A stretch of DNA of 64,000 bases from IMG/VR virus record IMGVR_UViG_3300050187_000003, positions 75,576 to 139,575 of that record. The stretch is one strand, 5' to 3'. This document shows, piece by piece, positions 12,261 through 41,981 of this stretch; the stretch's first letter is position 1; every line of letters starts with the position of its first letter. The translations under genes were made by a program, and so were the position numbers. The notes below the pieces were generated by a model. It was not told the origin of the DNA and did no database searches. It worked only from the letters and a program-made list of their open reading frames with translations. Origin of the DNA: a virus. Lineage: Duplodnaviria > Heunggongvirae > Uroviricota > Caudoviricetes.

Positions 12261-12719
12261 TCAGACAAGGTAGCACCGTGTGACAGGTGAGGTCGACGGG
12301 GTTAGCTGCCGAATGTGGCGGCCGACGAGACGCATCCGCCGCAACACCCGATCCGCCCGGATCAGCGTCGTCTCACCCACCTCAACCCAGCCGACCCACA
12401 TCCCGCCGCCGTGATACTCCCCAAGACACGAACACTCACAGTCGTCCCCGGATGCGTCCCGGCATCGGCGGTCACACTTCTGCGCAGTTGAGAACTCGGC
12501 GTCCACGTCGACCGTCCCGAACCGGTCCACCAAAGCGTCGACCAGCACCCCGAAGTGGGCGCGGGCGATCATCCACCGGCGGCCGGATTTGTTCCACACC
12601 GGTTGGATGCGGGCGCCGAGAGTGCGGTGCAGCCAGCGGCGGTTCGCCGGGTCGTAGGGCATCCACAGCTGGATGCGGTCAGGGGCGAGCGGCCGGTAGA
12701 CGGTGGGAGGGGCGGCCAT
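12261..12719 (-). CDS. hypothetical protein with a Cys/His cluster
   Basis: KCDRRCRDASGDDCECSCLGEYHG. Confidence 0.65.
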   Translation of the reverse strand: MAAPPTVYRPLAPDRIQLWMPYDPANRRWLHRTLGARIQPVWNKSGRRWMIARAHFGVLVDALVDRFGTVDVDAEFSTAQKCDRRCRDASGDDCECSCLGEYHGGGMWVGWVEVGETTLIRADRVLRRMRLVGRHIRQLTPSTSPVTRCYLV

Positions 12720-14634: not shown

Positions 14635-14886
14635 ATGACCGACGACCACACCATCCTCATCGCCGCTGCCCGGCGACACGCCACCTCCGGCAGCGGCAAG
14701 ACGATCCGGGAAACCGCACTGCTGTCACGGGCAGAGATCGCCGCTGTCGTCGGAGTGGACGAGTCCACCGTCTGGCGGTGGGAGCAGGGCCAGCAGGTGC
14801 CTCGCGGGAAGCGGGCCGTCAAGTGGGCTCAGGTGCTGGAGCGCATCGACGGCTACAACCAGCGGCTCGCTGCGGCAGCAGGCTGA
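14635..14886 (+). CDS. XRE/Cro-like HTH regulator
   Basis: IRETALLSRAEIAAVVGVDESTVWRWEQGQQVPRG; divergent from 13957-14436. Confidence 0.85.
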   Translation: MTDDHTILIAAARRHATSGSGKTIRETALLSRAEIAAVVGVDESTVWRWEQGQQVPRGKRAVKWAQVLERIDGYNQRLAAAAG

Positions 14887-14984
14887 TGCCGTCAAAAACA
14901 ACGGCCCCGGCTGGGTCTCTCACCACCCGCCAGGGCCGCACCGCCCGAACCCTCACGCCTCGACAGCGCAGAACCGGACCTTCC

Positions 14985-15398
14985 ATGACCGACGATACCC
15001 GTACACCCAGCCTTACGGCAGGGGTCACTTTGAACGCGGTTGCCGCGTTGGTCGGCGGCCAGGAGACGTTCACCCGCGAGCAGGTCGCCTACCTGATCGC
15101 GTTGGCCTACCGCAGCGGCATGGCCGCCAGCTACGAGGAGGACGTCGCCGAACTGCACGTCTCGTGGCAGACCCGAGCCGAACGGCAGCGAGTGTACGAA
15201 CGGCGGGTCGCCCAACGAATGAAAGAAATGGAGGCCGGAGCCGCACGGGAGGCGTCCCGTAGGCGTTCGGTCGTCTCGATGCCGGCCGGGCCGTGGCCGC
15301 CCGTCGTCAAACCTGGCACCGGACGCAACTCGGACCGGAGACGAGCGCAGTCACCGGCCCCCGACGGTAGCCGCAGTAGCGGTGGGGAAGCCGCATGA
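14985..15398 (+). CDS. hypothetical protein
   Basis: MTDDTRTPSLT; coupled to the DUF3987 gene by an ATGA overlap. Confidence 0.6.
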   Translation: MTDDTRTPSLTAGVTLNAVAALVGGQETFTREQVAYLIALAYRSGMAASYEEDVAELHVSWQTRAERQRVYERRVAQRMKEMEAGAAREASRRRSVVSMPAGPWPPVVKPGTGRNSDRRRAQSPAPDGSRSSGGEAA

Positions 15399-16971
15399 CA
15401 CTCACCCCCTACCGGTTCGACTGGTCTGATGTTGGCCTCGACGACGGCCCGGAGGCCATCGGCGGCGACGCCTCGGTCGACGACAACGGCGGGGCAACCC
15501 CGTTCGTAGCCGGTACCGGCTACGCCCGACGGTTCCCCGTCAGTACCCTGCCGGCACCGATGCGGGACTACGCCTGCGACCTCGCCGTACGCAAACAGGT
15601 CCCCGTCGACCTGCCCGCACTTACCATGATCGGCATCCTCAGTTCCGTGGCCGGGCCACGAGTCACGATCCGCCGCGACCTGGACTGGCGGCAGCCCACC
15701 AACCTGTACACCGCCTGCGCACTGCCCTCCGGCGCCGGAAAGTCCCCGACCGTTGATGAGCTACGTCGCGGGCTGTGGAAGGCGTCGAAAACCCTCGCTG
15801 CAGCCCACGAACGAGCCGTCGCCGGCCGGATCGTGGAACTGACCCGGCAGGTTGAACAGATGCGCAGCAAGGCCCTCGACGCCAGCACCCACCCCGACGA
15901 GCGGGACCTACTACGTACCCAGGCCAAGGCGTTGGAGAAGGAAGCCGACGACCTCGCGGCCGAACCACCTCCGACGCCGGAGATGGTGTTCGACGGTGAC
16001 ACCACCCCTGAGGCGTTGGCTACCTCGATGGCGGCGAACTACGGGGCGGCAGCGGTTATCGACGACGAGGGCACGTTCCTGCGGAACCTCGGCGGCCAGT
16101 ACACCGGAGGCAAGACCGGCAACCTCGGCCTAGTGCTGGTCGGCTACGACTGCCGCTACTACCGGCCGCGGCGGGTTACCCGGACGGCCGAGCCGATCAC
16201 CCGGGCCGCGCTGGCGTTGGTGATCTCGCCACAGCCGGGGATCGTCGCCGACATGATGTGCGGAACCAGGTCATGGAGGAAACCGGCCTAGTGAACCGGT
16301 TCCTGGTGTGCGTTCCGGGGGAGTTGACCGGCTACCGACAAGAACGGCCCTCGACCTACTACCGGGACGCACCCGATGTACGACCGGACCGTGCCGGCCG
16401 TGACTGGTGGGCCACAGTCCTGAACTCGGTCGTTGAGTACGACATCATCGGCGACACCAACCTGGACGATGCGCCGACTATCGAACTGACGCGGCAGGCA
16501 TGGGAACTGCACCGCAGCTACGAACAGCAGGTCGAGCTTCGTCTTCGCCCGGCCGGTGACCTGCATCGGATCAGTCCGTGGGCGACGAAGCACGTCGGTC
16601 GGGTGCTGCGCATCGCCGCCCTGTTGCACCTCGCTGCTGGTAGGAGCACCGACGATGAGTTGTCGGAGGCGACGATGCGGTCGGCGATTGAGATCGGCGA
16701 GTGGTCGGTGGAGCACTTCCTCGCGGCCGGTTCGGTTGTCGGGTTGACGACGGAGGCCGGCCTGATCAAGGAGTACATCGACGGTACGGAGCTGGGGTTC
16801 GCTACTCGGACGGTGATCGCCCGTGAGGTGTTCAGGGGGCATGCCTCTGCTGCGGAGATCACTGCGTGGATTGACGAGTTGGTGGCGGCTGGCGAGTACG
16901 TGCGGGATCGGTTGGCGACTGAGGGCCGGCCGAAGGAGATCGTTCGGAGGGTTGGGGTCCGTGCGGGGTGA
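15395..16971 (+). CDS. DUF3987/YfjI-like P-loop replication protein, split by a frameshift near 16257
   Basis: FPVSTLP, TNLYTACALPSGAGKS (Walker A), DTTPEAL, DDEG, GLVNRF. ORFs 15395-16291 and 16258-16971 join if one base is restored in ATG(G)TG. Confidence 0.8.
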
Positions 16972-17370
16972 GGGGGCTTTTTACGCTTCGTACGCAGGCT
17001 GCGCAGAAAGGGGTGCCGGCCGGCGTAGGTGCTCTGACCTGCGTTTTTGCGCCGCAGGGGACCCTTGTTGCGCTTTTTACGCTTCTTACGCAGGGGTGTG
17101 CGCAAGAAGGGGTGCAGTTGATCTTGCCCTACACACATTGTCCACTTTTCAAGATCTATCTATCTATCTCTATATAGACAGGTCAGAGGCGCTGCCCGGC
17201 CAAAGTCGCGTCCTGCCGGCCCGACCGGGCAGCCGCAACCGCCCGCAGCTATGCGTAAGAAGCGTAAAAAGCGCAACAAGGCAAGGGCGGGCAGCGTCTT
17301 CGCAGGTCAACCAGCACGCCAACCCGCGCGGCACCTTGCGTAAGAACCGCGTAGAAACCGCGCACTAACC
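16972..17370. other. putative replication origin
   Basis: Perfect 30-bp inverted repeat (17063-17092 / 17252-17281), further partial copies, and an AT-rich TATC-repeat core near 17145-17178; lies between two replication genes. Confidence 0.55.
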
Positions 17371-17393
17371 ACCCGCAACCGACAGGAGCCGCC

Positions 17394-18782
17394 ATGCGCT
17401 ACCTCGACCGCATCACCGACCAAGACGCCACCCCACTCAACTGGCTCACCGAAACCCTCAACGAGGCCACCGCCCTACACGCCCAGGTCGGCTACCTCGA
17501 CTGGGCAGGCTTCCAACTCATCGCCGCACCAGCACAAGACATGCTCGACCGGGGCGGCAGCCTCCGCATCGTCGTTGACGCCCGAAACAACCTGCCCCGA
17601 CACGGCGACCTCAAACAGATCCTGGAACGCCTAGCCCCGTACGGCAAACGCGCCACCATCCGACTCGCCCAGGACGCCATGCCACTGCACTCCAAGGTGT
17701 TCCTCATCAACGACAACGCCGGATCAGTGCATGCCCTCGTCGGCTCGGCGAACCTGACCCGCGCGGGGCTCACCAAGAACTGGGAGTCCTGCATCGCGCT
17801 CGGCCCCGCAGACGCAGCTACCGCCGAAGTGCGGGCTGCGGCCGAGGCGTGGGCCAGCCACCCCTCCTGCGTCACGGTCGACGTCGGAGTCCTCTCGTCA
17901 CTGGTCACCCCTGACTCGAGAACTGGGGCAAGCGTCCGAATCGGAGCCGACCTACAGTCGGTCCTTGACCACATTGAGCAGGTCGCCGACGGCGTACGCG
18001 GCGGACTGCCCACCGGTCTCGCCTCTCTTGACAGCCTGACCGGCGGACTGTGGCCAGGAGAGATGATCCTCATCGCTGGGAGACCTTCGATGGGCAAGAG
18101 CACCTTGGCACTCGACATCCTCCGGCACACAGCTATCGGCCGTAGCCGACCTTCTGCGATGCTCTCGTTCGAGATGAGCCGTCCTGAGATCCTGAAAAGG
18201 CTGATATCAGCTCTAACGAAAATCTCGGTGCACTCCATGCGGACCGGCAAGCTAGCCGATTTCGAGCGGGAGCGGCTCACCAATCACATGGACGAGATTG
18301 CAAAACGTCCGCTGTTCATCAACGACAGTTGCAGCCCATCGATCAGACATGTCGCAGCCGAAGCCCGACGCCTGGTCGCGGAGGAGGCAGTCGAACTGAT
18401 CGTCATCGACTACGTGCAGCAACTCAACGCCGACCGTCGCGTGGACAGCCGGCAGCACGAGTTGGCCGAGGTATCGCGGGCGTTGAAGCACCTCGCCCGC
18501 GAGTTGCAGATCCCGGTCATCGTTGTGTCCCAGCTGAACCGAGGTCCCGAGATGCGAAACGACAAGCGGCCTCAGCTGTCCGACCTGCGTGACACAGGCG
18601 GCCTGGAACAGGACGCCGATGTGGTGATCCTGCTGCACCGGCCGGACTACTACGACAAGGAACACGTGCGGGCCGGCGAAGCCAACCTCATCGTCGCAAA
18701 GCAGCGCAACGGGCCAACCGACTTCACGACTGTAGCCGCGCAGCTTCACCACTGCCGCTTCGCCGACATGGTGGGCTTGTGA
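17394..18782 (+). CDS. PLD-family (HKD) nuclease domain fused to a DnaB-like helicase C-terminal domain
   Basis: LHSKVFLIND...VGSANLT...NWE; then AGRPSMGKST, SFEMS, VIDYVQ, SQLNRGPE, SDLRDTGGLEQDADVV, AKQRNGPT. Confidence 0.9.
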   Translation: MRYLDRITDQDATPLNWLTETLNEATALHAQVGYLDWAGFQLIAAPAQDMLDRGGSLRIVVDARNNLPRHGDLKQILERLAPYGKRATIRLAQDAMPLHSKVFLINDNAGSVHALVGSANLTRAGLTKNWESCIALGPADAATAEVRAAAEAWASHPSCVTVDVGVLSSLVTPDSRTGASVRIGADLQSVLDHIEQVADGVRGGLPTGLASLDSLTGGLWPGEMILIAGRPSMGKSTLALDILRHTAIGRSRPSAMLSFEMSRPEILKRLISALTKISVHSMRTGKLADFERERLTNHMDEIAKRPLFINDSCSPSIRHVAAEARRLVAEEAVELIVIDYVQQLNADRRVDSRQHELAEVSRALKHLARELQIPVIVVSQLNRGPEMRNDKRPQLSDLRDTGGLEQDADVVILLHRPDYYDKEHVRAGEANLIVAKQRNGPTDFTTVAAQLHHCRFADMVGL

Positions 18783-18891: not shown

Positions 18892-18975
18892 TTGGTCCGC
18901 CTGGCGGACCAACACACGCCAAACTAGTCCGCCAGGCGGACTAACAACCCCAACCTTGGTCCGCCAGGCGGACTA
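18892..18975. repeat. three phased 15-bp palindromes GTCCGCC(A/T)GGCGGAC
   Basis: Cores start at 18895, 18927 and 18959, an exact 32-bp period. Confidence 0.9.
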
Positions 18976-19000
18976 ACCCCCGACCCACACGGAGACCGCC

Positions 19001-19738
19001 ATGACCCACACCAACCCGCTACACACCGCCGGATGGCATGCCGCCCAAGCCGAAGACCTCCTCCACACCGCCCGCTCCGCCTCCATGACCGGCTGGTGGC
19101 ACCGCCCGTACCGCCGCGAGCTGACCGCCCGCGCCCACGTCCACGCCACCCTCGCCGCCGCGCTCCCCGAAGACGACCTCCACCAGCGGGCCCTCCACCA
19201 CCAGATGGACGCCGCCGTCCAAGCAGCACGCGTTAACGAACTCACCACCCAACTCAACGAGGTGAGGGCCGCCCTCATCGGCGGCGGCCAAGACTTGCTG
19301 CGGAACGGCGACACCCTCGCCGGAGCGGTCGTCAAACTGATGGCCGCCTACTACAGCTACGACCCCGAAGGCGGCGAACTCAACGCCCTACACGTAGCCA
19401 TTGACGGCTCCGACCCGCTTAGCCGGGCCGCAACACTGAACTGGCTCGTCCGGGCCGTCCACAACCGGGCCACCGCCGGCCATTCGACTCCGCCGATCCA
19501 TGTCACCGTCAAGGACCTGCCCCAACTGTTGCAGCACCCGGTCGACCGCCGTCAGTTCGAGCGCCTGCTGGAATCTGCTGCGGCGGCGGGGGTGTCCGGG
19601 GTGGCGTACGGCGGCACCAGTTGGGATGAGATCGCCAACCGGTGGCCGCGGTTGTCGGATCGACTTCTGCCGGGCGGTCCGCTGGAGTGGAAACCGGCCA
19701 GCCTTCAGCCAGGAGCCCACGCAGGAGACCCCCGGTGA
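19001..19738 (+). CDS. hypothetical protein
   Basis: 245-aa ORF, GGAG RBS, high-GC3 codon usage. Confidence 0.7.
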   Translation: MTHTNPLHTAGWHAAQAEDLLHTARSASMTGWWHRPYRRELTARAHVHATLAAALPEDDLHQRALHHQMDAAVQAARVNELTTQLNEVRAALIGGGQDLLRNGDTLAGAVVKLMAAYYSYDPEGGELNALHVAIDGSDPLSRAATLNWLVRAVHNRATAGHSTPPIHVTVKDLPQLLQHPVDRRQFERLLESAAAAGVSGVAYGGTSWDEIANRWPRLSDRLLPGGPLEWKPASLQPGAHAGDPR

Positions 19739-31544: not shown

Positions 31545-31880
31545 TCACCCTGACAACGTCCGCACCGCAGCCAGCGGCCCCAGCCGGGCCGGATGCGTCA
31601 ACCGGAACCGCCACCCGCCCCCGTGTTGCTCTCGGACCAGATACCCGCCAGCCTCCAACTCCTGCAGCACCTCCGCCAGCGGCACATCGCCGAGACGAGA
31701 CGATCTCGACAAATCCGTGCCGTTGACCTCTGTCCCCTCACCGAAGGACAGCAGGTGCGTCAGAAGCCCACGGCCCGTGTAACTGACCTGCCGGTCACGA
31801 ACCCACACGCTCGGAATCCACGTCCTGTCGGCGCTGCGGGGCACAGCAACTGCGCAGACGATGTCGGGTACAGCGGTCAT
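31545..31880 (-). CDS. winged-HTH protein resembling the N-terminus of a phage replication initiator
   Basis: VRDRQVSYTGRGLLTHLLS...VLQELEAGGYLVR. Confidence 0.7.
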   Translation of the reverse strand: MTAVPDIVCAVAVPRSADRTWIPSVWVRDRQVSYTGRGLLTHLLSFGEGTEVNGTDLSRSSRLGDVPLAEVLQELEAGGYLVREQHGGGWRFRLTHPARLGPLAAVRTLSG

Positions 31881-32536
31881 GATGATCTCTCCAGTCCGTT
31901 GGCTTCCAGCCAGTCGTCGATGCCGTCGTCGTGGTCTGAGGTGAAGATGGTGTCCAGGAACCTGCCTGGCCAGCGGATCTTTTTCTGCTTCGACTTGGTC
32001 AGCGCCTTGTAGATGACGTCTGTAGGCCAGGTGCCCGTCTTGCTCCAGTGCCCTCCGGTGGTGCTGAGTTTCTCGCCGACGAACATGCGGAACTTCTCTC
32101 GGTCTTCGGCACGCCAGCTTGTCGGTACCTCGCCGGAAGGTTCGTCTTCAACGCGCTCGTGATCTTCGTCGTCTTCGCGCCCCGAGGCGAACGAAGTGAG
32201 CGGAGGGGGACAGGTCAGTTCAGGAACATCTTCTTCAACGGTTCTTCTTCTCGGTTCTTCTAAAGACCGGCCCTCACCGTCCGACGGTCCACCGTCCGAC
32301 GGTTTGGGACTTATGGTCCGACCTGCGGAAACACCAGATTCGGGGAGGTCAACGACCTGAGGGGTGTCGTAGAAGGTGTGCTCCCACCCGAACGTGCCGG
32401 CCTCGGTGCGGATACGAACCCGCTTTAGGTAGCCGGCGCGTTCCAGCTCCCGTAGCGCCGCCCGGATCGACTTGATGCCCTCGCCGGGCACGGTCGTGGC
32501 GGCCAGCGACTCGGCGGTGACCCGCCAGTTGTCCAG
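31877..32536 (-). pseudogene. HTH replication-initiator-like gene, apparently 5'-truncated
   Basis: (LDN)WRVTAESLA...EGIKSIRAALRELERAGYLKR; an in-frame TAG lies just upstream; internal repeat ACCGTCCGACGGT at 32276 and 32291. Confidence 0.6.
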
Positions 32537-32623
32537 TCGCTACCATGAACTACGGCGGGTCGCCCCGGAGAACTTGTCGCAGAGCCACCTCGCGGAGAAG
32601 GCGGCCCGCCGCACCACCCAGAC

Positions 32624-36163: not shown

Positions 36164-36424
36164 ATGCCGTCGAAGCTGTACATCCTGCGGATCCAGAACG
36201 GAACCCGCGCGGTCACGCCGGAAACCGCGCTGGAAGCGCTTGACTTCGACCGCCCAGACGCGGTGAAAGACCTGCTCAGGCGGCATCTGCTCGCGGCAGC
36301 AGAACGAGACGGAAAGTCGAGGTCGGAGGCGCACCTGTACTACCTGGCAGTGCACGAACGCCACCGCGACGGCCGTCCAGTAAACACTGCAATGGCCTAT
36401 TTTGTCCTGCCGGTGGAGTTGTGA
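36164..36424 (+). CDS. hypothetical protein
   Basis: AAGGAGG RBS; in the transfer operon. Confidence 0.65.
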   Translation: MPSKLYILRIQNGTRAVTPETALEALDFDRPDAVKDLLRRHLLAAAERDGKSRSEAHLYYLAVHERHRDGRPVNTAMAYFVLPVEL

Positions 36425-36627
36425 TGAACCTCGTCCGACCCCGCAGGAAAGCCACCAACCGGGTCACCTACCACCAGCAGCTGATCCGCACGGCACCCAC
36501 CCCGAGGGTTTCGCTGCGGAGAGCCGTGGAATGGCTGATGTCCGAGGCACACCACGGCAACATCCCATCCCTGATCAAAGAGGTGACCGCGCTGTCGGTC
36601 CGCGAAAACGAAAGGAGCCGACAGTGA
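36421..36627 (+). CDS. hypothetical protein
   Basis: Coupled ORF. Confidence 0.55.
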   Translation: MMNLVRPRRKATNRVTYHQQLIRTAPTPRVSLRRAVEWLMSEAHHGNIPSLIKEVTALSVRENERSRQ

Positions 36628-37046
36628 CGGAAAGTGTCGTAGCACTCGGCCATGGCAGCCCCGGCAACGGGATGCAGAGGCCGCGTGCGTCTGCGCGCGC
36701 ACGCATGAAAGCAAGCGTAACCCGCCGTGATCGGCTTCGAAGAATCCGGGCCGCCAACCCCGCCGCCAAAATCCGACACATCGGACGCGTCATGTACCTC
36801 GACGCAGCCGACTCGTGGATCGTCAACACCCACAGTCCGGCACCGAAAACCGTGTGGCGCACCGACTACAACTCCGCAGTCCCAGGCGCCTACCGGCCAT
36901 TCACCACCTGGTGTCGCATCTACCGCTACCCGGCGGTCGTGTTCGGCGCGACTCTCGACGGAGCCAAATGGCTCCTCATCCACCCCCTACGGGGACCACT
37001 CACGATCACCGCCGCAGCCGCTGGCGCGGCCACCATCCTCACCTGA
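36624..37046 (+). CDS. hypothetical protein
   Basis: AAGGAG RBS, GTG start. Confidence 0.55.
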   Translation: MTESVVALGHGSPGNGMQRPRASARARMKASVTRRDRLRRIRAANPAAKIRHIGRVMYLDAADSWIVNTHSPAPKTVWRTDYNSAVPGAYRPFTTWCRIYRYPAVVFGATLDGAKWLLIHPLRGPLTITAAAAGAATILT

Positions 37047-38525: not shown

Positions 38526-40892
38526 ATGTTCACCACCGACCACCGGCCGGCGCCGCTACCCAACCGCGCCGGCAACCAGCAGCCACGCCAAGCAGGCGGA
38601 TCACTGCCACCCGGCGCTGTCCGCTGGTCCACCATGTGGCTTGACACCAACGGCATGCCCCACACCGCCGACACCCCAGTGCCAGTCGACGCCGTCGACC
38701 GGCAGGTCACCACCCACACCCTGCACATCTGCCCCGGACGGATCGAAGTCGCCGGCGCCGTGCAGCCCTGCGACACCACCGCATGGCTGGCTGCCGGGCA
38801 GACCCGCTACTGCGGTGACCACGGCGTCCAGCTACAGCCCGACAAGCAAGTCACGACCCGGCCAGGATTCCCTACGCGGGAGATGGCGGCTGCCAACCGG
38901 CACCGCATCCACGCCGCCGCCGTTACAGCCGCGACGTTCGGCGCCGCCGCCGGCGCCGACTACACGACCATGCCGTGGTGGGGGGTCGCAGCCCAGTATG
39001 CGGCGATCCCCGCCGTCGTGGCGTCGTCGTGGTGGCTGACCCGCTGGTGGCTGACCCGCGACGCCGTCCGCCGCGGCCGGCTCGACTCCGGCGACGAAAT
39101 CGCAGGGAAACGCCGCCGACGACTGATCGACCGCCGCGCCCGCTACGCCGCATACTGCGCTGCGACCGCCGCTGGCTGGGTGGCGGTCGCCGACTGGGCT
39201 GGCCTCGACTTCACCACCACAACGGGGCCAGCGCTGACCGCCACACTCGGTATCGCCGCAGCAGTGTGCGCCCGCCCCTACCTGCGGTGGGCTGATCAGA
39301 AACGCGCCGCAGCCCCACCCGCCGCCCCACCGGTGGACGACCCCGACGACGGTGCCGGGCAGCCCGCCCCGGAACCGGATCCCAACAGCCTGCAGCAGCT
39401 CGCCACCTACGTCACCGCACGGTGGACCCAGTTCGTTGCCACCAGCAGAGGCCCGCTGCCAGGCACCGTCGTTGAGGACATCACCCAAACCTCCACCGGC
39501 GGGTGGTCGGCCACCATCGTCGCCACCGAAACATCCGATCTCGACCCAGAAAAGTATGTTGAGGAAAAGACGCTGCGGCGGATCGCCCGACCATTCAACG
39601 TCGGCACCAACATGGTGTCCATCACCGCCGACCCGCAAGACGCCAACCGGGCGTTCATCCTCGTCCAGCGGATCAGCCCACTACAGGGCAAAGGCCGTCC
39701 GTGGGACGGCTCCGGCATTGACCTGTCCACCGGCCGCGCCGAAACAGTAACCCTGGACGACGGCAGCCGCGGCTCCCACGAGTTTTGGCGGCCAGGCTGG
39801 GGAGCCGTCATGGAACTACTCGCGGGGGCGACCGGCTCCGGAAAGTCGGAGTACCTGAACCTGCTGCTCGCGTTGGAACGCCAGTGCGGCCATGTCGTGT
39901 CCTGGGTTGGAGACCCGCAGATGGGCCAGTCGCTGGGCGACATCCGTGACGGCGTCGACTGGTTCGCCCCCACCGTGGAGGAGATCCTGCTGATGCTCCG
40001 CACCGCACGGCAGGTCATGTTCACCCGCAACGTGCTCATCACCCGGATGCGCGCCGAGGACGACAAGGGTCGGCAGCGGCGCGTCAAGTACGTGGACGTG
40101 TCGCCCGACTTTCCGCTGCTGTCGATCAGCATCGACGAGGCGTATCTGCCGATGGGTGACCCGGACCACGGACCGGAGATTGTGAAGCTGCTGGCTTTGC
40201 TGGCCAAGTCCGGCCGTAAGTGCAACATCAAGATTCGGTTGATGTCGCAGTCTCCGCTGCTGTCCGAGCTGAAGGACTCGGTGCTGCGCGGCCAGGTCGC
40301 GTCCGGACTGGTCACTGTGTTCCGTACCGCCGACAAGCTGACGGGTAGCGCGGCGTGGCCCGGAAAGATGCCGGCCGACCCGGCGGCCCTGCCCGCGACG
40401 TGGCCAGACGGGGTCACCGCCGCCGGGGTCTGCTACATGTCGAACCAGCGTCCGCTCAAGGCCCGCACCGACTACGCCGGTGACGTGTACGACTTGATGC
40501 ACGCCGGTACGACCCTCGGTTTGGAGCCGGCTGTCCGCGCTGCCGCCGGGGTGGTGTACGCGGACCGGGTCAAGCGGCTGGCCGCGTTCGACGCTTTGGA
40601 TCCGGCGGAACTGGTGGGTGCCGAGATGCCGGACCTGAGGGTCGACGCCGCCGACGCGGGCGCGTCGAAGCCGGGGGGTCGGGACGCCGTGCTGCGGTTC
40701 CTCGCTGACCGCTGGCAGGACGGCGACCACAGCCTGACGTCGTTCGGGGACATCGACAGCAGTGTATCTGCGGTGAAGACCAGGGCACTGTCGAACGTGT
40801 TGAAGAAGCTCGTGGACGACCAACTGTTGGTTACGGAGACCGGCGCTTACGCGCTTTCGGCCCGTGGCGCTGAAGAGCTTGGGCTCGGCTAG
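38526..40892 (+). CDS. traB: FtsK/SpoIIIE-family DNA translocase, TraB/TraSA-like
   Basis: TM segments, Walker A AGATGSGKSE, Walker B ISIDEA, SQSP motif, C-terminal winged-helix-like domain. Confidence 0.85.
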   Translation: MFTTDHRPAPLPNRAGNQQPRQAGGSLPPGAVRWSTMWLDTNGMPHTADTPVPVDAVDRQVTTHTLHICPGRIEVAGAVQPCDTTAWLAAGQTRYCGDHGVQLQPDKQVTTRPGFPTREMAAANRHRIHAAAVTAATFGAAAGADYTTMPWWGVAAQYAAIPAVVASSWWLTRWWLTRDAVRRGRLDSGDEIAGKRRRRLIDRRARYAAYCAATAAGWVAVADWAGLDFTTTTGPALTATLGIAAAVCARPYLRWADQKRAAAPPAAPPVDDPDDGAGQPAPEPDPNSLQQLATYVTARWTQFVATSRGPLPGTVVEDITQTSTGGWSATIVATETSDLDPEKYVEEKTLRRIARPFNVGTNMVSITADPQDANRAFILVQRISPLQGKGRPWDGSGIDLSTGRAETVTLDDGSRGSHEFWRPGWGAVMELLAGATGSGKSEYLNLLLALERQCGHVVSWVGDPQMGQSLGDIRDGVDWFAPTVEEILLMLRTARQVMFTRNVLITRMRAEDDKGRQRRVKYVDVSPDFPLLSISIDEAYLPMGDPDHGPEIVKLLALLAKSGRKCNIKIRLMSQSPLLSELKDSVLRGQVASGLVTVFRTADKLTGSAAWPGKMPADPAALPATWPDGVTAAGVCYMSNQRPLKARTDYAGDVYDLMHAGTTLGLEPAVRAAAGVVYADRVKRLAAFDALDPAELVGAEMPDLRVDAADAGASKPGGRDAVLRFLADRWQDGDHSLTSFGDIDSSVSAVKTRALSNVLKKLVDDQLLVTETGAYALSARGAEELGLG

Positions 40893-41231
40893 GGCCGCCC
40901 GTGTGGCGCAATACCCACCAAGACAACGGTGTGCGCACCGCGAACCGCGGTACGCGTCCAGCCCTCATCCCCGGATTCGACGATGACCGCATCCATTGAC
41001 ATGCCAGCCGGCAACATCTGACAGCCCCCGCCTGCCCCCCACCTCTGAGGAGCATCAGCCCATGAGCACCGAATCCACAGTTCCGGACAGCAACGACGCC
41101 CGAGCCGTCGCAGCCCTAGCAAACGCAGCCCTCGACCAAGACGCTTTTCTCTTGCTGCGGGCGGCGGCGTCCGGCGACGGGGACCAGATCCGGGCGGCCG
41201 TCGCCGACCTGCGACAGGGGGAAACCCGGCG

Positions 41232-41981
41232 ATGATGGGTCGCACCCACGCCCTGTCCGGCGCAGCCGGATGGATCACCGGCTGCGCAGCCCTCACCGCC
41301 GCCGGACACACCCCCGACCTGCGGACCGTCGCGTTCGGATCGGCGATCGCCGCCGGACACGCCCTCCTGCCCGACATTGACCATCCCGGATCGACGATCG
41401 CCCGGTCTCTCGGCCCGGTCACCCGCATCGTCGCGGCCGGGGTGCACCGGTTCGCGGCGTGGCTGCGAACCGCCTCCTGCGGGCACTGCCGCCGCCGGCC
41501 CGACCGGGGCGGCCACCGGGCGGTCACCCACACCGGCCTGTTCGCGTTCGCTGCTGGTTTGTGCGCGGGCCTGCTCGGCTGGCTGTCCGGGTGGGTGGCT
41601 GCCGCGTTCGTTGTCGGACTGTCGGCGGCTCTCGCTGTCCGGGCGATGACCAGCCGCCGGCAGCGCGGCGCCTTCGGAGCGGCCGCCGCTGGGCTGCTGT
41701 CCGGCGGCGCGCTGTGGGTGACGAGCGCAGACGTCGCATCCTGGTGGTGGATCGGTGTGCCTGTCGCCTGGGGCACGCTTGCCCACTCCCTCGGGGATGC
41801 GGTCACCAAGTCGGGGGCGCCGTTGCTGTGGCCTGTCCGGGTTCGTGGCTGCCGCTGGTGGGGTGTGGGCACTCCTCGTTGGATGCGGTTTCGCACTGGT
41901 GGTGGGGTGGAGCGGGTGGTGTGGGTGTTGCTGCTGGTGGGTGCGGTCGGCGGGTTTGGCTGTCTGGTGGTTGCAGCCTGA
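41232..41981 (+). CDS. inner-membrane metal-dependent hydrolase, YdjM/DUF457-like
   Basis: MGRTHA, LLPDIDHP, HRAVTHT, HSLGDAVT. Confidence 0.88.
   Translation: MMGRTHALSGAAGWITGCAALTAAGHTPDLRTVAFGSAIAAGHALLPDIDHPGSTIARSLGPVTRIVAAGVHRFAAWLRTASCGHCRRRPDRGGHRAVTHTGLFAFAAGLCAGLLGWLSGWVAAAFVVGLSAALAVRAMTSRRQRGAFGAAAAGLLSGGALWVTSADVASWWWIGVPVAWGTLAHSLGDAVTKSGAPLLWPVRVRGCRWWGVGTPRWMRFRTGGGVERVVWVLLLVGAVGGFGCLVVAA

Follow-up and report, generated by a model that had tools for sequence, protein, structure and literature searches.

The window, that is the whole 64,000-nucleotide stretch of DNA that was analysed, belongs to a 172,930-base virus record, from a phage of soil actinobacteria, containing several prophage-like units, and it carries an intact gene for a 462-residue protein (P0001) in which a PLD nuclease domain is joined to the motor of a DnaB helicase. 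The features of the locus are as follows.

14635-15398, plus strand: XRE helix-turn-helix gene and a 137-residue phrog_37611 gene, head of the module
15395-16971, plus strand: DUF3987 replication gene, split over two frames (15395-16291 and 16258-16971)
16976-17349, no strand: putative origin, an AT-rich core flanked by inverted iteron arrays
17394-18782, plus strand: PLD-DnaB fusion gene, 462 residues (intact reading frame, Pfam and fold match)
17394-17903, plus strand: single-HKD PLD nuclease domain, residues 1-170 (profile, residues, fold)
17940-17987, plus strand: DnaB linker helix (LH), residues 183-198 (helix in the model; aligns with the DnaB linker)
18003-18764, plus strand: DnaB C-terminal RecA-fold motor, residues 204-457 (profile, alignment, residues)
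18258-18302, plus strand: presumed docking/determinant helix (DH), residues 289-303 (topology)
18892-18976, no strand: three 21-bp palindromes at 32-bp spacing, 3' of the fusion gene
19001-19738, plus strand: 245-residue gene, a 43% identical homolog of which also follows the fusion at another locus, L098

The fusion reading frame is preceded by a ribosome-binding site (AGGAG, 17384-17388). An earlier note, made from the sequence alone, had read the N-terminal part of the product as a PLD nuclease of BfiI/NgoFVII-like ancestry, with an HxK motif, GSAN and the following N and E residues, and the remainder as a complete DnaB C-terminal motor without the DnaB N-terminal domain, and our analyses bore out each of these points. 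The PLD catalytic set is entire (H99, encoded at 17688-17690, K101, S118 and N120 within the GSAN of residues 117-120, N129, and E131), and Pfam searches identified PLDc_2 at residues 48-137 (E 2.7e-9, over the cut-off) and RE_NgoFVII at residues 70-143 (E 3.9e-7). DnaB_C matched residues 204-457 (E 2e-86, profile positions 1-254 of 255) with all motor residues present (Walker A K235, catalytic E260, D339, Q380, and K436-x-R438), and the DnaB N-terminal domain PF00772 gave no match at E<=0.1. In the AlphaFold model of P0001 (pLDDT 75.6, the linker at 171-201 being poorly resolved) residues 1-171 have a PLD fold, with Z-scores of 14.4-15.3 to BfiI, Nuc, NucT, and NgoAVII, and residues 178-462 have a DnaB fold (Z of 33 to 6kza). 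Also as previously suggested, parts of the gene are GC-poor: its GC content is 0.637, against 0.685 +/- 0.024 for 94 genes of the contig, and the dip lies in codons 171-330 (GC3 0.68-0.70), outside the PLD part.

A point absent from the earlier note is that P0001 keeps the DnaB linker helix; from topology, we take residues 289-303 to be the DnaB docking/determinant helix, which varies among fusions. The LH-DH module joins the protomers of DnaB and is the binding place of DnaC, lambda P, and DciA (PMC9912922), and PLD nucleases of the single-HKD kind cleave as dimers whose two chains share an active site (PMC2853115). A homodimer of the P0001 PLD domain was predicted with a score of 0.70, versus 0.00 for the best control, the mark for a dimer being one that 20 of 30 solved pairs attain, as does 1 of 23 single chains. 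The runs agreed on 53% or more of the contacts, with pLDDT of at least 80, and the predicted contact is the canonical PLD interface, H99 facing E131/N129 of the partner as in the solved Nuc and BfiI dimers, a likeness that the prediction may owe to solved structures. Together, the linker and docking helices and the predicted canonical dimer make the translocating ring nuclease that had been proposed a plausible one.

Upstream, the two DUF3987 frames cover positions 1-213 and then 214-361 of the Pfam profile; the frameshift near 16255-16262, likewise absent from the earlier note, is apparently a 2-base insertion, which could be real or an assembly error. No primase domain was seen ahead of the DUF3987 gene. 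Directly after it, and directly before the fusion gene as the earlier note had placed it, is an array of iterated inverted repeats (16976-17349; 41-nt arms, 88% complementary, with an AT-rich core near 17126-17190) which we infer to be an origin. Scans of viral sequences with the DUF3987 gene and the 245-residue gene downstream of the fusion as neighbors gave no match. No promoter-like site was found before the fusion gene in the window, which makes its expression in a lysogen doubtful, and the gene looks like part of an early lytic operon. No methyltransferase was recognized beside the fusion gene in the window, the nearest recognized genes with methyltransferase motifs being more than 18 kb away.

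The 21-bp palindrome (central CCWGG) that occurs three times after the fusion gene, where 0 copies are expected by chance, is of the initiator type. Elsewhere in the contig (G000 C1) an O-like initiator gene (40339-41613) with six internal palindromic iterons is followed by a full-length DnaB, and these six iterons (41109-41320, 53 kb away) are the same 21-bp palindrome; the copies are helically phased at both sites. The trio is missing at the matching place in L098 and was not found in the other fusion loci, on which grounds we rejected it as part of a conserved module, and it has no AT-rich stretch, on which ground we rejected it as an origin. It is a local addition, probably an operator or titration site for the O-like initiator, of a possibly remote or incA-like kind.

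Several other features of the contig were observed. A degenerate paralog consisting of DnaB_C only (C1 38256-39014; L099 2257-3015) directly follows the full-length DnaB gene, another DnaB_C-only copy is convergent to the fusion in L101 (12133-13026), and extra copies of this kind are found repeatedly next to dnaB genes. On the minus strand of the window, at 31545-32600, a pair of initiator-like winged-helix genes lies side by side, the first weakly related to the initiators of loci L001 and L003 (PHROG 270/428, E about 1e-4). The contig also has three serine-recombinase-like genes and, judged by eye, a locus at C1 161242-165850 resembling type IV-B CRISPR, with a PAPS-reductase-like gene and Cas7/Cas8-like genes; similar small Cys-rich proteins, likewise noted by eye, are encoded a few kb from the fusion in the window (12261-12719) and in L001 (13720-14127). 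The contig ends (C1 1-99 and 172718-172930) match an internal repeat (36210-36668), and the record may consist of two phage genomes (about 36.5 and 136 kb) joined at a shared region.

A search for the domain architecture together with its neighborhoods, as the earlier note had proposed, was run with the PLD part and yielded some 60 PLD-DnaB_C proteins of full length, in both replication-linked and defense contexts. The named members are all actinobacterial (Micromonospora, Dactylosporangium, Glycomyces, Saccharopolyspora, Saccharothrix, Pseudonocardia, Frankia, and Mycobacteroides). There were two fusions in the family-level sample of 401 genomes and no further ones in the order- and class-level samples; among plasmids, matches were confined to Pseudonocardia plasmids and one weak match in Arthrobacter. 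No tblastn match to the fusion was obtained in 50,697 GenBank phages, none of the 80 closest viral DnaBs carries a PLD domain, and the ESM Atlas returned only generic DnaB clusters under 0.9. In databases the members are named only "DnaB-like helicase C-terminal domain-containing protein" or "HKD family nuclease," and no NCBIfam model passes its cut-off on the fusion (for instance 307 vs. 385 for TIGR00665 and 274 vs. 499 for TIGR03600). The family is undescribed, as we found no named family or account of it in the literature or databases; the nearest description is of DnaB_C proteins beside a retron lineage (PMC13712802).

The earlier note did not foresee that most members, although conserved, are without the catalytic His and some ATPase residues. 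Among the 58 members that could be scored, with ATPase state judged on six core residues, His is present in 13, 12 of which have all six ATPase residues, and it is replaced in 45 (mostly by Asn), 41 of which are without some of the six. This covariation (counts of 12/1/4/41) is inflated, because the members are kin and only three independent transitions underlie it, all concordant on the narrower definition (sign test p 0.25). The usual losses in the His-less members are K to R in Walker A and Q to E, and most of these members keep K101, GSAN, N129, E131, and the arginine finger K-x-R. The tree makes His the ancestral state, with two or more losses. The His-bearing members are divergent (26-57% PLD identity). 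Both catalytic states occur in replication-linked and in defense contexts. Three doubly dead members (P0050, P0183, and P0192) have an added C-terminal alpha/beta-hydrolase domain.

In the tree the PLD domain groups (100/100) with stand-alone PLD proteins of 400-460 residues, all of which are His-bearing, and one of these, P0009, adjoins a type II methyltransferase (E 1e-49). This grouping with stand-alone restriction PLDs shows that the recognition domain of a restriction enzyme was swapped for a DnaB motor. An uncharacterized BfiI-like PLD restriction enzyme with an adjacent methyltransferase, and IS elements on both sides, was observed in Verrucosispora (L009 6867-9260). No methyltransferase was recognized or annotated beside the fusions in the fusion loci examined. 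The motor of P0001 is 53% identical to the host DnaB and 36% identical to the contig's own DnaB, and the clade of the window groups with host-type DnaB. Repeated recapture of the host DnaB is suggested by the tree, while single origins were not rejected for either the motor (p-AU 0.115) or the PLD domain (p-AU 0.44).

Both domains are under purifying selection in both catalytic states, with dN/dS of 0.21 and 0.12 for an active pair and 0.09-0.30 for dead pairs. One relative, from another sample, is of the same length and has a 95% identical PLD. Between P0001 and its nearest relative, identity is 95% in the PLD and 86% in the distal motor and only 40-67% in the LH-to-DH block; across the clade, identity in LH and DH is about 30%, compared to about 60% in normal DnaBs, making the module about twice as variable. 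The variability could have arisen by recombination, relaxed selection, or diversifying selection.

The fusion loci fall into differing neighborhoods. In four phage loci of the window's clade (the window, L098, L001, and L003) the fusion is directly after an initiator or origin, and three different initiator types are represented. In L098 it follows an origin which itself follows the element's own helicase gene, and in the prophages L001 and L003 an O-like initiator immediately precedes it and no second DnaB lies within 10 kb. In L048 and L046 dead copies of the fusion immediately follow dnaB. An integrase element of Mycobacteroides abscessus (L114 502-18206) has a dead-type fusion two genes after a PrimPol-DUF3987 gene and origin, and several of its genes are without Pfam or PHROG match. 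The complete phage G1135 has an O-like initiator and the fusion as its only DnaB_C, at a distance of about 12 kb from that initiator and behind a divergent PIN gene; this phage and L005, L057, and L060 are stand-alone loci.

In other loci the fusion is beside pPIWI-RE and Mrr (L047), Gabija (L052), TIR and caspase genes (L101), Schlafen-Mrr and PDC-S39 (L007), or integrase and HNH genes (L008). Mobile elements carry defense genes anyway, which weakens the argument from such neighbors. Beside another fusion, at the edge of an AICE in Micromonospora, there is a VII-A2 retron (L002 11553-13361; DUF3800 and RT). The fusion was rejected as a dedicated retron subunit, since an RT occurs at one locus only, and a GmrSD_C gene near L005, which looks like a secreted nuclease, was not counted as defense.

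We consider it about an even chance (roughly 0.5) that the fusion is a DnaB-mimicking, possibly ring-forming, nuclease used by mobile elements in conflicts between replicons, a reading drawn from sequence comparisons and structural models. It is favored because of the defense-island neighborhoods and the rarity and scattered occurrence of the fusion, and because the replicons that carry it have other helicases: a full DnaB in the window's own contig, a DnaB directly upstream in L048, a helicase gene upstream in L098, and PrimPol-DUF3987 in L114. It also best explains the restriction ancestry and the conserved dead forms. Further points in its favor are a motor closer to the host DnaB than to the contig's own, the covariation of His and ATPase residues, and the predicted PLD dimer. 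By sequence and structure, the PLD of a BfiI-like type II restriction enzyme exchanged the domain that reads DNA sequence for the motor of a host-type DnaB together with its linker helix. This motor would form a ring, either alone or mixed with DnaB. The N-terminal domains of DnaB form a trimer of dimers on the ring. The PLD domains would pair where those domains normally pair, so that the ring would carry as many as three PLD sites where the primase collar otherwise is. Targeting would be achieved not by DNA sequence but by loading of the ring on melted origins or forks, or by contact with a helicase loader or initiator, after which ATP-driven translocation would feed DNA to the PLD dimers. 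The victim may be a co-infecting or co-resident replicon, or the forks of the host (abortive infection or takeover), and the His-less form may mimic DnaB without cutting, as a poison of DnaB rings, a sink for loaders, or a sensor for another effector.

A tentative and more specific version, to which we give just over one chance in four, is a decoy or "Trojan" replicative helicase, in which the LH-DH module would be bait that makes a phage or element load the nuclease ring on its own origin. The victim's initiator or loader would be one that normally recruits the host DnaB, swaps of the LH-DH block would change specificity, and the doubly dead forms would be pure decoys or sensors coupled to other effectors. 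A role in conflicts between replicons is weakened by the post-initiator slot of L001 and L003 without other DnaB, by G1135 with its sole DnaB_C, and by a covariation of catalytic states having only three independent transitions, and it leaves unexplained how the element spares its own forks. The earlier note had left the choice between superinfection defense and replication open; a part in conflict is now favored, with a replication enzyme as the alternative, whereas the case for defense exerted by a lysogen is weaker, given that the gene apparently belongs to an early lytic operon and has no promoter-like site.

As that alternative, the fusion is possibly, though with odds well short of even, the element's own replication enzyme, an N-terminal-less helicase loaded by the phage initiator whose nuclease would nick or process the element's DNA for a rolling-circle switch, fork restart, or resolution. 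Such a role best explains the post-initiator slot beside three initiator types and the situation in G1135, and it is in keeping with the initiator-type palindromes that follow the gene here and with the finding that DnaB can still unwind DNA when its N-terminal domain is missing (PMC4523182, PMC1888833). Conversely, most members are without some core motor residues, the fusion has no primase-binding domain, many fusions are in defense islands without an initiator, the other helicases named above would already be available, and even in G1135 the gene is distant from the initiator.

The prevalence of His-less members that keep the rest of the PLD motif and the trans-acting finger, and the position of dead copies directly after dnaB in L048 and L046, could also point to a family-wide non-catalytic inhibitor of DnaB or its loaders, the PLD being a dimerizing collar and the intact sites in P0001 ancestral leftovers. 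We regard this as unlikely, as His and the full ATPase set are kept together in divergent members, which argues for selection for coupled catalysis in the window's branch. An assembly chimera or decaying accidental fusion, which the earlier note had raised against its own reading, is brought to mind by the frameshifted DUF3987 gene upstream and by a contig that is a mosaic of prophage-like units. It is highly improbable for the window, and at the family level it is already refuted by sequence comparison, given about 60 independent full-length homologs, the relative of the same length from another sample, and purifying selection in both domains.

Comparison with known systems places the fusion between several of them. 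The closest stand-alone relatives of its PLD are of the BfiI/NgoAVII (NgoFVII) type, which have the same single-HKD fold and catalytic set and form a dimer with a shared active site (PMC2853115). BfiI-like type II restriction-modification enzymes have a C-terminal recognition domain where the fusion has DnaB_C, and no cognate methyltransferase was recognized beside the latter; NgoAVII and CglI, unlike the fusion, have a separate SF2 ATPase subunit. SauUSI (PDB 7clg), the best PDB match of the PLD profile (E 2.7e-7), likewise has an N-terminal PLD on an ATP-driven motor. However, SauUSI is a dimer with an SF2 motor and a methylcytosine-recognition domain, whereas the fusion has an SF4 ring-type motor and no recognition domain.

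With bacterial DnaB and helicases of the phage P22 gp12 type, the fusion has in common the linker helix and complete C-terminal motor and, in some phages, the post-initiator position; the N-terminal primase-binding domain of replicative DnaB is absent. In T7 gp4 and Twinkle, too, the N-terminal tier of an SF4 ring carries an enzyme, in their case a primase rather than a nuclease.

Among defense proteins, DISARM DrmC, PbeA, Azaca ZacB, DpdK, and Druantia DruE matched the PLD profile (E 1e-9 to 1e-4), but these matches span only a PLD fragment (DrmC scored 19.7 vs. a cut-off of 133), the helicases of these systems are SF2, and no DISARM, Pbe, Azaca, or Dpd partner genes were recognized among the window neighbors or in the loci examined. 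In Druantia, forked DNA can trigger the helicase-nuclease (10.64898/2026.05.13.724313). The retron lineage TXI_noncan_h resembles the fusion in having DnaB_C accessory proteins tied to a defense system, but its hosts are gut Bacteroidota and Bacillota and its account does not mention PLD (PMC13712802), and the retron in L002 is VII-A2. PADLOC returned only partial PLD or ATPase matches, consistent with the initial view that the architecture is outside the named defense systems. The fusion would work like motor-nucleases of the SauUSI or Druantia type, yet by sequence it belongs to none of the named families; a restriction nuclease borne on an SF4 replicative ring is, as far as we found, nowhere described, the helicase-nuclease defense proteins compared being SF1 or SF2.

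If the fusion is a conflict protein, mimicry of DnaB would serve to sense or destroy foreign replicons, and the protein would offer a handle on which actinophages borrow the host DnaB; were the decoy version true, it would be an integrated-decoy immune protein built from a replisome motor. If it is a replication enzyme, it would be a one-gene candidate for the poorly understood rolling-circle switch in temperate phages. In either case, only one gene is involved, active and inactive variants of which occur in nature, and it is directly testable in laboratory actinomycetes.
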